Position numbers and translations under genes: made by a program | Shown: positions 17,783-23,832 of the stretch, piece by piece | How positions within the stretch are numbered: the first letter of the stretch is position 1 | How the letters are laid out: every line of letters begins with the position of its first letter | NCBI GenBank assembly: GCA_013425325.1 | Contig: JACCLL010000099.1 | Span: forward strand, 8,792-32,791 | Source of the DNA: Candidatus Micrarchaeota archaeon | GTDB lineage: Archaea; Micrarchaeota; Micrarchaeia; Norongarragalinales; UBA8480 | Direction: 5' to 3' | DNA length: 24,000 nt | Notes under the pieces: model-generated | Database searches by the model: none | What the model saw: the letters and a program-made list of their open reading frames with translations, nothing else | What the model was told of the DNA's origin: nothing

Positions 17783-18643
17783 ATGAGCGGCTTGAAAAAC
17801 GAGTTGCTGCGCTTGGGCTTTCCCGAGGAAAAACTCGGTTTGGTGCGGAGTTCGTACGACCTAATTGGCGACATCGCGTTGCTCGAAATTCCCTCGGAAG
17901 CGAAAAAATACTCTAAACAAATTGCGCAAGCCGTGCAAAACATTAACAAACACGTTAAAGTGGTTGCAGTCAAGGCCGGAGCTACGAAAGGAAAGTACCG
18001 CGTGCGCAAAATAAAGGTAATCGCCGGCGAAAAACGCTCTTCGACAATCCACCGCGAAAGCGGCTGCTCGTTCAAAGTTGACTTAAATAAAGCGTATTTT
18101 TCGACGCGCTTGTCCCACGAACGCGAGCGCATTGCTTTGCAGGCGGCGCCAAAAGAACGCGTGCTCGTCCTCTTCGCGGGCGTCGGGCCGTTTGCAATAG
18201 TCACCTCCAAAAAACAGCCTATGGCTTCAGTCACCGCAGTTGAACTCAATCCCGCCGCAGTCAAGCTATTGAAGGAAAACATTGTGTTGAACAAAGTTGC
18301 GGGCCGTGTTGTTGCAGTTAAGGCCGACGCGAAAAAGTTCTGCGCAAAAAAGGAGAACAAGGCCGCTTTCGATCGGGTTGTAATGCCGTTACCGCATTCC
18401 GCGCACGAGTTTCTTTCCGGGGCAATCCGTGTGCTGAAGCCAAAGGGGGTTATTCACTTTTATTCAATCGGCGAAAAGAGGCGGCGGTCGCACGAGAAGC
18501 TTGATGTTTTCAAAAAACCCATCGTCAGGGTTTCGCTAGCGTGTAAGAAAGCAAAGAAAAAATGTGAAATAGTCAACAAGCGCACGGTGTTGCACTATTC
18601 TCCCTTCGAAGACGAAGTGGTAATCGACTTCAAGGCAGTCTGA
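17783..18643 (+). CDS. Trm5/Taw2-family (Met-10+ domain) SAM-dependent tRNA G37 modification enzyme, lacking the N-terminal D1 domain
   Basis: SYDLIGDIALLEIP, TIHRESGCSFKVDLNKAYFSTRLSHERERI, VLVLFAGVGPFAI, VELNP and FDRVVMPLPHSAHEFL follow the Trm5/Taw2 pattern. Only ~23 aa precede the D2-like region. I cannot separate Trm5 (m1G37) from Taw2 or a bifunctional Taw22 by eye. Confidence 0.7.
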   Translation: MSGLKNELLRLGFPEEKLGLVRSSYDLIGDIALLEIPSEAKKYSKQIAQAVQNINKHVKVVAVKAGATKGKYRVRKIKVIAGEKRSSTIHRESGCSFKVDLNKAYFSTRLSHERERIALQAAPKERVLVLFAGVGPFAIVTSKKQPMASVTAVELNPAAVKLLKENIVLNKVAGRVVAVKADAKKFCAKKENKAAFDRVVMPLPHSAHEFLSGAIRVLKPKGVIHFYSIGEKRRRSHEKLDVFKKPIVRVSLACKKAKKKCEIVNKRTVLHYSPFEDEVVIDFKAV

Positions 18644-20009
18644 ATAAAGCTTTTGACGTCTCCGGCCGGCGGTAAGCGCCTTTTTCCTTCAAGTAGGGCT
18701 GCATTATGCGGTGAGTGACTTGGCCCGCGTCCTCTAGTTTCTGCGGGTTTCGGCAGGCGACTAAAACTATTTTGCGGCTTTCTCCAACCTTAGGCGCGAA
18801 AACAGTTGGTTCTATCGTCCCATCGCGTTTCAGCACTCTTACTTTCAACGGTTTTTCGAAGTTGGGCGTGACTGCGACGATGAAGTCTTCTCTCGGAAGT
18901 CTTCTCGCGAGTTTTCGTTCCAGTAACTTCTTGAAGGCAGTTGTTTGCACGGTTCGTTTGCCGCGTTCGTTTAGTGCTGTGAAAGAAGTTTGGAAGGCGG
19001 GGTCGAAAGACAGCCACGGCGAGTGCCAGAAGAGCGCGTGTGCTTCCGGTATTCCTGCTTTTTCCATTTTTCGAAGTAATGTCTCGTCTTCGGTAAAGAA
19101 GTCTTCAGCGGAAATCGCTTTCTGCTTAAGGCTTTTTTCGACCGCGCGCCTCAGCAGGTCGCGCCCCATCATTGACGCCGGGTGAAAGTAAACTGTTGCG
19201 GAAAGCACGTTCCGATACTTAGCATATCGTTCCAGTGCTTCCTTTGCTTCTTCACGTACGCATAGTTGGCCGTCTTTTACCGCAAGGCCGGAAATCACTT
19301 TGTTTAAGTTTGCCTTCATTTCCCTCGCGAGCTTTTGGTTGCCGGCTCCCGAGTGGTGGAGGTCCCGTTGCAGGTAGTCTATTCGGTCGGCGAAGTCGGT
19401 TATTATTTCTCCCAGGCCTTCGCCGTGAATGTGCGCGAGTATTCTGTCGTAGTCGTAGCCGCTTTGCGCGATTAATTTGTCTACTCCTTCGCTTCGCAGG
19501 CGCTGGTCAATGACTTGCTCGTGGTCCACGCCCAACTCTTTTTTAACAAAGGGTTCGAGCGCGTGGCCGAATGCGGTGTGTCCAACGTCGTGCAATAAGG
19601 CCGCAATACGGATTTCCTGCTGCTGTTTCGGCGGCAGCTTCAATCGTTTGACTATTCGGCTAGCCACGTGAAGCGTTCCCAGAGAGTGCGCGAGCCGGCT
19701 GTGCGTCGCGCCAGGATAAAAGCCGCCACTTACGGTCTCGAGTTGCTTGACGTAATTAAGTCGGTTAAACAAGGGGGTTGCGGCCAGCCGCTGTTCTACT
19801 GGCGTAAGTTTGACTAGTCCGTGAACCGTAAGAAATTCGTATTGCCCGTAGTCTTCCTGGTCGAGAAAGGTTCTCATCGCCTGCCCCGAGTGGATTGCGT
19901 CGCTCAGGCTTCGTTGAGGCAGTTCGCCTTGCTTTACGCGTTCCTTAATTCGTTTTATCATGAGCTTGTCGATTTCAGGTAGCCTGCGCCAGCGTCTTGT
20001 CCGAGGCAT
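18630..20009 (-). CDS. HD-domain phosphohydrolase, COG1078/SAMHD1-like (dNTP triphosphohydrolase-like), paralogue A
   Basis: HSRLAHSLGT, LLHDVGHTAFGH and ADRIDYLQRD are the H..HD..D signature shared with SAMHD1-type enzymes. The ATG lies 1 nt after the upstream paralogue's stop, with GAGGGA upstream. Confidence 0.7.
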   Translation of the reverse strand: MPRTRRWRRLPEIDKLMIKRIKERVKQGELPQRSLSDAIHSGQAMRTFLDQEDYGQYEFLTVHGLVKLTPVEQRLAATPLFNRLNYVKQLETVSGGFYPGATHSRLAHSLGTLHVASRIVKRLKLPPKQQQEIRIAALLHDVGHTAFGHALEPFVKKELGVDHEQVIDQRLRSEGVDKLIAQSGYDYDRILAHIHGEGLGEIITDFADRIDYLQRDLHHSGAGNQKLAREMKANLNKVISGLAVKDGQLCVREEAKEALERYAKYRNVLSATVYFHPASMMGRDLLRRAVEKSLKQKAISAEDFFTEDETLLRKMEKAGIPEAHALFWHSPWLSFDPAFQTSFTALNERGKRTVQTTAFKKLLERKLARRLPREDFIVAVTPNFEKPLKVRVLKRDGTIEPTVFAPKVGESRKIVLVACRNPQKLEDAGQVTHRIMQPYLKEKGAYRRPETSKALFRLP

Positions 20010-20010
20010 T

Positions 20011-21402
20011 TCATTCCCTCATTTCGGCGACGGGCAGCCGCCACCGCGTCGTGATCCTTATTTGTAGGGGGTTTTCTTCAGTCAGGTACGGCTGCATGAA
20101 CTCTTTCACTGTTTTCCTCATTTCGTCGGCTTTTTTCTGGTCGCTGCACGCGACTAAGAAAACTTTGTCGGAGTCGGCCACGGTCGGCGCGTAAGCAACG
20201 TTTTCGATTCTCCCGTCTTTGTGCAGCAGGCGGTATTTGAACGGCTTTTCGAACTTTGGAGTCGCGGCTACTACTATCTCTGCTTTTCCAGCAATTTCTT
20301 GCAGCCTTCGTTCGAGGACGGCCTTGAACTTGGAGTCGTTGACCGTCAGTTTTCCCCTTTCATTCAGTGAAGAAAAGTCGATCGCAAAAGCCGGCGTGAA
20401 GTGGTGGGCTATCAAACCCGTTTCAAAGTGCTTTGCCTCTGGAATTCCGCCTGCCAGCATTTTGTCGACCAGCTGGTCGTCGGAAAGCAGCAGGTCCTTC
20501 GGCGATAGTTTTTTCTCGCGCAGTCCGCGGTCGACCGCGCGCGTTAGCAGCTCCCTTGCCATCAATGCCGACGGGTGGAGGTAGAGCGTGGTGAAAAAGT
20601 AGTTGCGGTAGCGCGCGAATTTTTCCGCTAGGGGCTTGGCTTCCTCTCTTACGCACACTTTTCCGTCGCGCAAAACGAGGTTGGAAGCGAGCTTGTTAAG
20701 GTCCCGGCTTAGTGCAGTTATTATTTGGCGCATTCCCGTCGCAAAACGCGCGTCTCGCTGCAGGTAGTCTATGCGGTCCGCCCATTCGGTCAGGATTTCG
20801 CCGGTTCCTTCGCCGTTGATTTTGGCGAGTACGCGCTTGTAGTCGATTCCGTTGCGTTCGAGAAACTCGGGCACTCCCTGCCGTCTCAGCAGTTCATTGG
20901 CTATTTCTTCATGGTCTAGCCCCAAGTGCTTTTTTATGAACGGTTCGGTGGCGTGAGAAAAGGCGGCGTGACCTACGTCGTGAAGCAAGCCAGCTATGCG
21001 CAGTTCGGCTTGCTCTTGCTTCGACAGCTTCAGCTGCCTGGCCAAGCGGCCGCTGAGGTGCATTGTTCCAAGCGAGTGCTGGAAGCGCGTGTTGTTGGCC
21101 GTAATCCAGAAGCCGCCGTGCGACGCTTCGAACTGTTTTACGTGGGCCAGCCGCAGGACTGCCGGCGCGTGGTGCAGTTCCCACTCGAGTGGCGACATTA
21201 TTATGGGGCCGTGAACGGCGTCGTAGTAGCCGTTTTCGCGGTCGATTGCTTCCATCGCAAGCGCGTGGTGAATCATTGAACTTAAGTGGACTTCGGGAAC
21301 AATGCCTTTGCGCACGAATTCCTTCGTTTGCTTGATTCCCTGTTCTTCACCCGGCCAGAGGCTGCGCCACTTTCGCTTGCGGTACTTGCGCGCGGGTTCC
21401 AT
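20011..21402 (-). CDS. HD-domain phosphohydrolase, COG1078/SAMHD1-like, paralogue B
   Basis: TRFQHSLGT, LLHDVGHAAFSH and ADRIDYLQRD. It is collinear with paralogue A over the full length. The ATG lies 28 nt after an A/T box. Confidence 0.7.
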   Translation of the reverse strand: MEPARKYRKRKWRSLWPGEEQGIKQTKEFVRKGIVPEVHLSSMIHHALAMEAIDRENGYYDAVHGPIIMSPLEWELHHAPAVLRLAHVKQFEASHGGFWITANNTRFQHSLGTMHLSGRLARQLKLSKQEQAELRIAGLLHDVGHAAFSHATEPFIKKHLGLDHEEIANELLRRQGVPEFLERNGIDYKRVLAKINGEGTGEILTEWADRIDYLQRDARFATGMRQIITALSRDLNKLASNLVLRDGKVCVREEAKPLAEKFARYRNYFFTTLYLHPSALMARELLTRAVDRGLREKKLSPKDLLLSDDQLVDKMLAGGIPEAKHFETGLIAHHFTPAFAIDFSSLNERGKLTVNDSKFKAVLERRLQEIAGKAEIVVAATPKFEKPFKYRLLHKDGRIENVAYAPTVADSDKVFLVACSDQKKADEMRKTVKEFMQPYLTEENPLQIRITTRWRLPVAEMRE

Positions 21403-21620: not shown

Positions 21621-21830
21621 TTATGCTCGGCGTTCCAGCTTGTCCAGCCTGCGCATTAGGTAGATTATGAGGAGGAACGAGAACGCCTGCAGAAGCATGA
21701 GCGTTTGTTCCGCTACCGTCTTTGCGCCGACGTCCATGGCCTGCCATACTAGCACTGCGACGAATATTACGAGCAGCACGGCGTAGACTAGTTTCTCCAA
21801 ATCCGTTTTCTGTGTTTTTTCTTTAGCCAT
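21621..21830 (-). CDS. Small two-TM membrane protein (hypothetical)
   Basis: ATG start 6 nt after the TBP-domain gene stop. Two hydrophobic helices (LVYAVLLVIFVAVLVW, LLQAFSFLLIIYL) are flanked by charged termini. Confidence 0.5.
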   Translation of the reverse strand: MAKEKTQKTDLEKLVYAVLLVIFVAVLVWQAMDVGAKTVAEQTLMLLQAFSFLLIIYLMRRLDKLERRA

Positions 21831-21836
21831 TTGTCT

Positions 21837-22136
21837 TCACGCTATGTAGTCGCGTAGTAGTTCAACTGCTTTTTTTATGCTGGCTTCGATTTGTTTCTCG
21901 CTTTTTGCTCCGCTGCAAATGACTTTGCCGTTTTTGAACAGTAGCAGGGTTGTCCCAATTTCCTTCAAGCGCATTATTGCGCCGGGGAATTGTTCGGGCT
22001 CGTATTCCACGTTGTCGATGTTCATTGCTATGTTGAACAAGTCAAGTTCAACTTTTAGGTTGGCGCTAGCAACGATGTTTTCGACTTTGAAACTCGTGTC
22101 GATTCTTTTGTGGAGTTTCTTAGCCTTTTTTCCCAA
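21837..22136 (-). CDS. Single-repeat TBP-domain protein (half of a TATA-binding protein)
   Basis: FKVENIVASANL..LDL..IA....N.EYEPEQFPGAIMRL.E..TTLLLFKNGKVICSGAKSE carries the hallmark motifs of one TBP repeat (ENIVAS, EYEPEQFPG, LLLF..GK..C.GAKS), including both DNA-inserting Phe positions. The protein is only 99 aa with a basic N-terminal tail. TTG start with GGTGAG 6 nt upstream. An in-frame TAG lies at 22173..22175 upstream, and the TGA stop is followed by an unrelated ORF. Confidence 0.85.
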   Translation of the reverse strand: MGKKAKKLHKRIDTSFKVENIVASANLKVELDLFNIAMNIDNVEYEPEQFPGAIMRLKEIGTTLLLFKNGKVICSGAKSEKQIEASIKKAVELLRDYIA

Positions 22137-22173
22137 ATTAGCCTCACCTTTAATAAAGGATATTAAAACCCCC

Positions 22174-22181
22174 TATTTAAA
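22174..22181 (-). promoter_or_regulatory. TATA box (TTTAAATA on the minus strand) upstream of the TBP-domain gene
   Basis: Near-consensus archaeal TATA octamer about 40 nt upstream of the TTG start and about 28 nt upstream of the SD. It lies between the upstream gene's stop (22201) and the SD. Confidence 0.5.
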
Positions 22182-22200
22182 CCCCGCTCAAAAGGCGTTT

Positions 22201-22530
22201 TCAGAGGGCTAGAAGGAGCACGGTAATGAACGCCAGGACCGCCAGCACGTGCGCGGAGCCGAACGCGCCGACGAAACCGTCTTTCAACAGCAGAAGGACC
22301 ACAAACAAGGCGACTATTCCGACGAAGCCGAAAGACAACAGGAATCCAAGTCCTGCCGCCAGTGCGTTTCCGAGGGCAATTAGCGTGATTCCGATGCCTC
22401 CCGCGAGGATTGCGGGTGCTCCGATGAGTGCGCTGGCCGTTGTTGCGCCCTGCAATTCAACAAGTATAAATACCAGAAGGAGAAAACCAATTAGAAGCGT
22501 CGACAAATCGTCTGCGTTCATCGATATCAC
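22201..22530 (-). CDS. Small G/A/L-rich integral membrane protein (hypothetical)
   Basis: Three to four hydrophobic segments and no recognisable family. The start may be the ATG at 22521 (MNADD...). Confidence 0.5.
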   Translation of the reverse strand: MISMNADDLSTLLIGFLLLVFILVELQGATTASALIGAPAILAGGIGITLIALGNALAAGLGFLLSFGFVGIVALFVVLLLLKDGFVGAFGSAHVLAVLAFITVLLLAL

Positions 22531-22577: not shown

Positions 22578-22859
22578 TTGAAGAGATCACATGGCTATTA
22601 CGCGGGAAGAAGCCGCGGTCTTAAAATCCGCGGCAGGGTGCCGATCACAAGGCAGCTCGCCGAGTTTAATGAAGGCGAGACCGTGCGAATCCGGTTGGAC
22701 TCGCGCGTTAGGGGCGGCGGAATTTCTTTGCGTTACAACGGCAGGGTATGCAAGATAGTGGGCCGGCAGGGCAGGGCATACAAGATACTGCTTAAGGACA
22801 TCAACAAGCCCAAGCACTTCGTCGTGTCGGCAAGGCACTTGCAGAAGATTGAGGGTTGA
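22578..22859 (+). CDS. rpl21e: 50S ribosomal protein L21e
   Basis: KRSHGYYAGRSRGL...ITRQLAEFNEGETVRIRLD....RYNGRVCKIVGRQGRAYKI fits the L21e pattern. TTG start with GCAGGTG upstream. It is first in the conserved archaeal L21e-RpoF-DUF655 gene order. Confidence 0.8.
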   Translation: MKRSHGYYAGRSRGLKIRGRVPITRQLAEFNEGETVRIRLDSRVRGGGISLRYNGRVCKIVGRQGRAYKILLKDINKPKHFVVSARHLQKIEG

Positions 22860-22865
22860 TTTTGA

Positions 22866-23204
22866 ATGCAGGCAATTTCGGAAAAACCGGTGACGCTCGC
22901 AGAAGTAACCGAACTGCTCAAGAAAAGGCAGAAGGAACAGCGGGACGGAGCGCCGTTGAGCTACGAGCAACAGAATACTCTGGACTACGCCGAGAAGTTC
23001 GCCCACGTTTCAGTGAAGGACGCGGCCGCGCTGCGCAAGAAACTCGAGGCGCTCGGAGTACTGAACGAGAAGCAGATAGTAAAACTAATTGATGTACTGC
23101 CTTCGAAGGAAGAGGATGCGAAAACCATTCTTTTCCAGGGCGGCTTTTCAGTGGAAGCCGAGCAGCTCAAGCAGGTAGTCGTGTTGTGCAAGGAATACCG
23201 ATAG
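22866..23204 (+). CDS. rpoF: DNA-directed RNA polymerase subunit Rpo4 (RpoF, Rpb4 homologue)
   Basis: The ~112 aa length, VTLAEVTELLKKR....LSYEQQNTLDYAEKF...A..L...L......KQIVKLIDVLP and its position after rpl21e fit archaeal RpoF. Confidence 0.75.
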   Translation: MQAISEKPVTLAEVTELLKKRQKEQRDGAPLSYEQQNTLDYAEKFAHVSVKDAAALRKKLEALGVLNEKQIVKLIDVLPSKEEDAKTILFQGGFSVEAEQLKQVVVLCKEYR

Positions 23205-23262
23205 ACTTAATTAAAACGGCTTCCAAACTTTTTGAAGTTACTTGAACCCCGAGTGATGGCAA

Positions 23263-23832
23263 ATGATAAAACGCGAAGAATACGGTTTAGTCCTTGACTT
23301 TCTTCCACACGGCAAGTCCGGCGGCGCGTCAGGCGAGCCGACTGCGCAAGTAGTTGGAGAGACTTACTTTACCCTGCTTGAAATAACGCTGAAGCCGGAC
23401 GCAAAGGCGCAGGAGGGAGAACGGCTTTACTTGGGACGGGAACAGCGCGACAAAGTAGACCGGATAATCGGCCGCGTGGGCTTCAACGACTTGACGAACA
23501 GCGCGCAGAAATCATTGGTTCCCGTAGCCGGCAAAATAGTGAAGTCGCGCGAGCCTGACTTCGTGCAGTTCTTGAACCGCGCCGGGGCAATAAGCATCCG
23601 CAGCCACTCGCTCGAACTGCTTCCTTCAATCGGCAAAAAGCACTTGCAAAGCCTTCTCGACGCCCGCACTAAACAGCCGTTTGCCAGCTTCGAGGATATC
23701 CAGAACCGAGTACCGCACATCCGCAGCGTCGAGCAGATAGTCGTAGACCGCGTGCTTGAAGAACTGCGCGGCGGCTCCAAGTACTATTTGTTTACCAAGC
23801 CGGTGCGCGAGGAAGAAGAGCGCAGATTCTAA
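23263..23832 (+). CDS. DUF655-family protein (putative nucleic-acid-binding, HhH-containing)
   Basis: The N-terminus EEYGLVLDFLPHGK and the C-terminal HhH-like region (LELLPSIGKKHLQSLLDAR...FASFEDIQNRV) fit the family. It holds the canonical position downstream of rpoF. Confidence 0.7.
   Translation: MIKREEYGLVLDFLPHGKSGGASGEPTAQVVGETYFTLLEITLKPDAKAQEGERLYLGREQRDKVDRIIGRVGFNDLTNSAQKSLVPVAGKIVKSREPDFVQFLNRAGAISIRSHSLELLPSIGKKHLQSLLDARTKQPFASFEDIQNRVPHIRSVEQIVVDRVLEELRGGSKYYLFTKPVREEEERRF

Follow-up and report, generated by a model that had tools for sequence, protein, structure and literature searches.

TATA-binding protein (TBP) normally consists of two halves, and its two-lobe saddle is derived in textbooks from the duplication of a homodimeric one-lobe ancestor that is still treated as hypothetical; a 2026 paper (PMC12917281) depicts the monopartite TBP as a hypothetical prototype and uses RNase HIII as its stand-in. 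In a 24 kb stretch of archaeal DNA (hereafter the window), we examined a small gene that appears to encode only one of these halves, as an earlier note made from the sequence alone had proposed. Is this gene a genuine free-standing single-repeat TBP gene or a fragment of a two-repeat gene, and does it take the place of the normal TBP in the organisms that carry it? We show that it is a genuine, non-extendable single-repeat gene, conserved in a deep clade of Micrarchaeota and most often found at the locus where related genomes keep their two-repeat gene, and we propose that its product probably works as a symmetric homodimer.

A 99-codon gene encoding a single TBP repeat

To test whether the gene encodes a complete TBP repeat, we first established its structure. 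The gene lies on the minus strand, starts with TTG (22136-22134), ends with TGA (21839-21837) and encodes the product MGKKAKKLHKRIDTSFKVENIVASANLKVELDLFNIAMNIDNVEYEPEQFPGAIMRLKEIGTTLLLFKNGKVICSGAKSEKQIEASIKKAVELLRDYIA. The elements of the locus are as follows.

21837-22136, minus strand: coding sequence of the single-lobe TBP, 99 aa, stop codon included, with a Lys-rich N-terminal tail (aa 1-14) and the TBP repeat (aa 15-97)
22143-22148, minus strand: Shine-Dalgarno-like GGTGAG, 6 nt upstream of the TTG start
22173-22175, minus strand: in-frame TAG, 12 codons upstream of the TTG, which closes the reading frame so that the gene cannot be extended at its 5' end (stop-to-stop segment 21840-22172)
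22174-22181, minus strand: TATA-box-like TTTAAATA, about 40 nt upstream of the start codon, whose function as a promoter is inferred; a second A/T box, TTTTAATA, lies at 22161-22168
21621-21830, minus strand: downstream 69-aa hydrophobic ORF, unrelated to TBP, starting 6 nt after the TBP stop
22201-22530, minus strand: upstream 109-aa hydrophobic ORF, unrelated to TBP, between the TBP gene and L21e
22578-23832, plus strand: divergently transcribed L21e (22578-22859), RNA polymerase subunit Rpo4/F (22866-23204) and DUF655 (23263-23832) (Pfam PF01157 and PF03874, and PF04919 on the same 189-aa product)

The earlier note had not stated the strand, and its range, 21837-22181, includes the promoter; its other observations hold. 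A 111-aa plus-strand ORF at 21877-22212 is an antisense shadow of the TBP gene. Neither hydrophobic ORF has a Pfam hit, and the rest of the window is ordinary archaeal housekeeping DNA, with genes for D-aminoacyl-tRNA deacylase, a beta-CASP nuclease, geranylgeranyl reductase, NFACT and a wyosine radical-SAM enzyme in addition to L21e and Rpo4/F.

Firstly, we searched the product against Pfam and found one TBP domain (PF00352) at aa 15-97, covering profile positions 1-85 of 85 (E 8.2e-29, 99.7 bits against a cut-off of 22.9). The motifs ENIVAS, EYEPEQFPG and LLLFKNGKVICSGAKSE are present, as are both Phe residues (F50 and F67). The NCBIfam TBP models match the protein with either their N-terminal or their C-terminal half at 62-89 bits, far below their whole-protein cut-offs of 181-347 bits, as expected for half a TBP. 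Secondly, we compared the protein with solved structures. The best matches are the archaeal TBPs 2Z8U, 1MP9 and 1AIS, at 40-45% identity to their repeats, and in each of them both repeats align with similar scores (for example 72.5 and 63.8 bits for 2Z8U). Thirdly, an AlphaFold2 model (pLDDT 88.1) showed the strand and helix order expected of one TBP lobe (S1-H1-S2..S5-H2, half a saddle); its top 44 Foldseek matches in the PDB are all TBPs, with rmsd 0.8-1.2 A over 77-81 residues and a target TM-score of 0.40-0.46, which is half of the target. Lastly, a profile search of all six frames of the window revealed no second TBP repeat, the next-best hit having E > 2. Hence, the protein belongs to the TBP repeat family but is not a canonical TBP by architecture, since it lacks the two tandem repeats in one polypeptide of about 180 aa.

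Conservation of the gene in independent assemblies

An apparent single-domain TBP could be a fragment produced by a frameshift, misassembly or recent decay. Brindefalk et al. found that most apparent single-domain TBPs in databases were misannotated two-repeat genes, and one related locus in our own data (L079) does have a two-repeat gene broken by an in-frame stop. The evidence refutes this explanation for the gene studied here. In addition to the absence of any trace of a second repeat in the window, the flanks are unrelated genes 6 nt and 64 nt away. The identical 99-aa protein was called on five contigs, and the four places shown come from four samples (SRR9617868, ERZ27247694, SRR12594517 and ERZ27247851) and have the same neighbours, the upstream hydrophobic ORF being called there as 106 aa; this answers the concern about assembly or frameshift without read data. 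A search of 5.8 billion proteins gave 1070 hits. Of the best 120, 104 are single-domain proteins of 91-132 aa that are 77-94% identical to the query and that, where named, are labelled Micrarchaeota, Micrarchaeia or Norongarragalinales, mostly as 'hypothetical protein', because half-length proteins fail the cut-offs of the TBP models; the other 16 are two-repeat TBPs of 145-174 aa at 50-63% identity. The gene is represented by more than 100 protein clusters of the same length under strong purifying selection. A viral origin is unlikely, since a motif scan of IMG/VR gave only two hits, both in divergent two-repeat TBPs on 174-kb contigs.

The single-lobe gene at the TBP locus

We then investigated the genomic context of the gene by scanning one genome per species (GTDB) for the back-translated motif EYEPEQFPGA, a scan that was partial and tied to this one motif. 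Profile analysis of the six-frame ORFs sorted 120 loci into three groups: 80 loci with a two-repeat TBP gene, 18 loci with the family of the window gene (Family A, with the hallmark AIMRLKEIGTT) and 22 loci with other single-lobe genes (Family B, with the hallmark AILKLKxPKxS...ICTG). In most loci of all three groups, the TBP gene lies head-to-head with the L21e-Rpo4/F-DUF655 cluster (53 of 80, 14 of 18 and 15 of 22, respectively), the conserved neighbour of the TBP gene in Micrarchaeota and Iainarchaeota. The synteny is not universal, since four of the 18 Family A loci, and the protein P0049, are not next to L21e, although many of the apparent exceptions are genes near the edge of their 8-kb chunk. 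A tblastn search found no match to the downstream hydrophobic ORF in other Family A loci, and the upstream one is absent from, for example, locus L062, where TBP and L21e are 136 nt apart. All 18 Family A orthologues carry TTTAAA or TTTATAAA-type boxes in the 75 nt upstream, and most have GGTG or AGGTGA at the place of the Shine-Dalgarno sequence.

On a neighbour-joining tree built from the three linked markers, the Family A genomes, including the window, form one clade (13 taxa, bootstrap 97), although their markers are only 38-65% identical, while Family B forms two or three other clades interleaved with two-repeat clades. At equal marker divergence (45-55% identity), Family A proteins are 86% identical, Family B proteins 72% and the N or C repeats of two-repeat TBPs 64%. 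Family A is also more conserved than the neighbouring L21e, Rpo4/F and DUF655 genes. This constraint fits a homodimer in which each residue must serve both halves.

These results bear on the possibility that the protein is an accessory lobe, acting as a competitor or regulator (for example by capping TBP or TFB) or in another nucleic-acid-binding role beside a canonical two-repeat TBP encoded elsewhere. Halobacterium TbpA, a single-domain TBP reported as apparently functional but not essential that coexists with full TBPs (PMC3597702), provides a precedent. We consider this unlikely, given the position of the gene, its fixation in a deep clade, its conservation beyond that of bona fide TBP repeats and the retention of the DNA- and TFB-contact residues (see below). 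The non-syntenic two-repeat loci with room on both sides in the scan (about 9) belong to diverse other groups. However, a co-resident canonical TBP is not excluded by a partial scan in which even the 1.30 Mb contig behind one locus (L057) cannot be claimed as fully searched. An attempt to assign non-syntenic loci to Family A genomes by G+C content was uninformative, since Family A loci range from 0.34 to 0.61.

A split TBP, in which the protein pairs with a more divergent single-lobe gene elsewhere in the genome, is a realistic alternative, since genomes with other single-lobe families carry two or three different single-lobe genes, one in the syntenic locus and one elsewhere: JAGGYF01 (loci L052 and L004), JAPLWT01 (L086 and two copies in L084) and JAIOSL01 (L058 and L109). 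In contrast, none of the 18 Family A genomes appears twice in this partial, single-motif scan, and no separate partner class is left unassigned among the 120 loci, whereas partner classes are visible for Family B. In addition, the Family A sequences are unimodal (core identity 77-100%, median 88%), with no two paralogous subfamilies, and Family A is more conserved than Family B, the opposite of what is expected if each half could specialise. A divergent partner lobe is not excluded by the partial scan, but is less favoured than the homodimer.

Functional residues and proposed mode of action

We next assessed whether the residues that define TBP function are retained. N20 and V22 (central minor-groove contacts), F50 (one of the two DNA-kinking Phe residues) and E46-P47-E48 (the acidic motif contacted by TFB/TFIIB on the C-terminal lobe) are invariant across single-lobe and two-lobe relatives, and F67, the second kinking Phe, is at least 90% conserved; the roles of these residues are those established from TBP-DNA and TBP-TFB structures. 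E46-P47-E48 align with the C-terminal repeat of P. woesei TBP from the TBP-TFB-DNA complex 1AIS. The stirrup loop, however, is KEIGTT instead of the usual KEPKxS, which could change TFB binding.

A single lobe cannot form a saddle alone. Of the three functions that the earlier note considered (homodimer, half of a split TBP, competitor or regulator), the evidence favours the homodimer, although none is excluded. In the reading that we consider the most likely, with moderate confidence, the gene is the positional orthologue of the two-lobe TBP, and two identical 99-aa chains pair through the surface that joins the two repeats in canonical TBP. Such a dimer would recreate the ten-stranded sheet as a perfectly two-fold-symmetric saddle with four intercalating Phe residues and two identical stirrups, and would bind near-palindromic TTTAAA-type TATA boxes. 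TFB could dock on either stirrup, because each carries the E-P-E motif, and the direction of transcription would be set by TFB-BRE contacts, as is already established for archaea. Dimerisation, TATA binding, TFB recruitment and the absence of another TBP in these genomes are inferred, without biochemical evidence. Besides the sequence constraint and the absence of a partner class in the scan, the homodimer is indirectly supported by related fused TBPs that work with lobes 66-80% identical to each other (loci L090, 0.80; L042 and L093, 0.78; L006, 0.75), against a median of 0.41 across TBPs in general. Crude k-mer counts upstream of ORFs, made to ask whether Family A genomes use a more palindromic TATA box, showed a TTTAAA core in all three groups (14%, 23% and 25% of upstream regions), and no difference can be interpreted at this resolution.

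Origin of the lobe

The earlier note described the repeat as a mosaic of N- and C-terminal features, and our analysis supports this. The repeat is equidistant from N and C repeats (mean identity 0.42 against 0.43) and carries 4 N-like and 5 C-like states at the nine columns that separate the N and C lobes of the outgroup two-repeat proteins. In repeat trees, the DPANN N lobes, C lobes and single lobes group together, apart from the canonical N and C clades, and within DPANN the N and C lobes tend to pair by lineage; however, deep bootstraps of these neighbour-joining trees of 77-87 columns are below 30. On the marker tree, a two-lobe ancestor with four losses and a one-lobe ancestor with re-duplications are equally parsimonious, at four steps each. 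Either repeated fission, or repeated re-duplication or gene conversion, has occurred in this locus, and the data do not distinguish between them.

Discussion

A more far-reaching reading remains possible, though tentative: that this deep clade of Micrarchaeota has no two-lobe TBP at all and initiates all transcription with an obligate, perfectly symmetric homodimer of the 99-aa lobe, a living equivalent of the postulated pre-duplication TBP, and that, more broadly, Micrarchaeota and Iainarchaeota have switched repeatedly between one-lobe, split and fused two-lobe TBPs in the same locus, so that the duplication-fusion step that created TBP can be studied in extant organisms. If the protein is the sole TBP of its clade, it allows direct tests of whether a perfectly symmetric TBP can bind and bend TATA DNA, how promoter polarity is imposed when both stirrups are identical and what lobe asymmetry added. 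The mixture of one-lobe, multi-paralogue and near-symmetric two-lobe versions in one syntenic locus also gives a natural series for studying domain duplication and fusion, or fission.

The earlier note knew of no characterised free-standing single-repeat TBP in archaea, which needs correction, since such proteins have been reported: Halobacterium TbpA and the Thermococcales candidates (PMC3597702), together with a one-sentence mention in PMC7221094. In contrast, in full-text searches that did not cover most subscription journals, we found no description of a Micrarchaeota or DPANN single-lobe TBP, of its location in the TBP locus or of a clade lacking a two-lobe gene, so that this conserved, clade-wide, syntenic replacement appears undescribed. 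A DPANN comparative-genomics paper scores TBP as 'conserved'. The supplements of PMC8407392 do not mention K03120, TBP or TATA, those of PMC7221094 mention neither single lobes nor Micrarchaeota, and arCOG01764 was found only in an unrelated paper.

Compared with canonical archaeal TBPs (M. jannaschii 2Z8U, P. woesei 1AIS, S. acidocaldarius 1MP9), the protein has the same Pfam family and predicted fold, the Phe pair, the central Asn/Val and the E-P-E motif, and shares the genomic locus of the two-repeat TBP of related DPANN genomes, but it has one repeat per polypeptide, a different stirrup, a short Lys-rich N-terminal tail and a slower evolution. Its closest sequence relatives are DPANN two-repeat TBPs with near-identical lobes (for example loci L090, L042, L093 and L006, and proteins P0010 and P0012; 50-64% identity), which share the motifs EYEPEQFPGA and LLLFKNGK, the locus and the host phyla; their two lobes are fused in one chain and are 45-80% identical to each other, hence nearly but not perfectly symmetric. 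Halobacterium TbpA is likewise a free-standing single TBP domain that clusters with genuine TBP repeats; according to the literature (PMC3597702), it is very similar to full-length TBPs of the same species, coexists with them and is not essential, and it is a recent truncated paralogue, not a clade-wide replacement in the TBP locus, although coexistence with a full-length TBP is not excluded for the window protein either. The Thermococcales monopartite proteins (PMC3597702, Table 3; for example P. furiosus NP_578195, 96 aa) have about the same length, a single TBP-like domain and an archaeal host, but are described as highly diverged from TBP, forming a separate cluster and coexisting with normal TBPs, while the window protein gives a full-length, high-scoring TBP match. 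Finally, the N-terminal TBP-like domain of RNase HIII (DUF3378, PF11858) has the same helix-grip TBP-like fold and is used as a single copy to bind double-stranded nucleic acid, but it is bacterial, forms part of a multidomain enzyme and shows only marginal similarity to the window protein (Pfam E 0.15, 12.7 bits against a cut-off of 27; Foldseek E 0.2, TM 0.3), which is not a domain of this type.

Genomic context of the single-lobe genes

We examined the surroundings of the single-lobe TBP genes. A minority of the genes of Family A, the family of the window protein, are not next to L21e (L001/P0049 and the loci L026, L066, L072 and L075). For example, P0049, a 104-aa protein encoded on a 452 kb contig, lies between a T2SSE-type ATPase and the CCA-adding enzyme. 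Hence, the gene has moved in some lineages while staying single-lobe. In the window itself, two adjacent paralogous HD-domain proteins (459 and 463 aa; HD + HD_assoc_2) are encoded immediately downstream of the TBP-69-aa ORF pair, and the same arrangement is present in an independent assembly (L124):

18630-20009, minus strand, HD-domain protein
20011-21402, minus strand, HD-domain protein

In the viral collection, the only hits to the motif used for the scan (EYEPEQFPGA) are a divergent two-repeat TBP (244-aa ORF segment) on two large contigs of ∼174 kb classed as viral (L122 and L123), which is unrelated to the single-lobe family.

Multiple and interrupted TBP genes

Some genomes carry two or three different single-lobe TBP genes belonging to Family B, the other single-lobe genes recovered in the scan. 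These are JAGGYF01 (Iainarchaeum; loci L004 + L052), JAIOSL01 (L058 + L109) and JAPLWT01 (L084 5132-5462 and 6410-6737 + L086). In these genomes, one gene sits in the L21e/Rpo4/DUF655 locus while the others sit elsewhere, the two copies in L084 being about 1 kb apart. These genes could be naturally split, heterodimeric TBPs. In another locus, L079 (minus strand, ORF segments 1-358 and 361-598), a two-repeat TBP gene is interrupted by a single in-frame stop at the start of the second repeat, which could be a sequencing error, a pseudogene or a fission in progress.

Variation in tails, repeat number and lobes

Firstly, four single-lobe and two-lobe DPANN TBPs, P0247 (183 aa), P0212 (152 aa), P0123 (261 aa) and P0151 (229 aa), carry long Lys/Ala/Pro-rich tails resembling histone H1-like basic tails, whereas the window protein has only a short basic N-terminal tail (MGKKAKKLHKR). 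Secondly, we found representative proteins of unknown origin with three or four TBP repeats in one chain, namely P0121 (376 aa), P0122 (272 aa), P0126 (702 aa) and P0154 (329 aa); the first two repeats of P0122 are near-identical. Thirdly, the two-repeat TBPs of loci L090, L042, L093 and L006 (and most of the clade L002, L007, L015, L028, L030, L047, L049, L073, L098) have N and C lobes that are 66-80% identical to each other, against a median of 41% in TBPs generally, pointing to recent re-duplication or gene conversion between lobes in Micrarchaeota. Finally, the stirrup loop (aa 57-63 of the window protein, nt ∼21950-21968) is KE(I/L/M)GTT in the window protein and all Family A orthologues and is conserved within the family, where other DPANN and canonical TBPs have KEPKxS or DPK.
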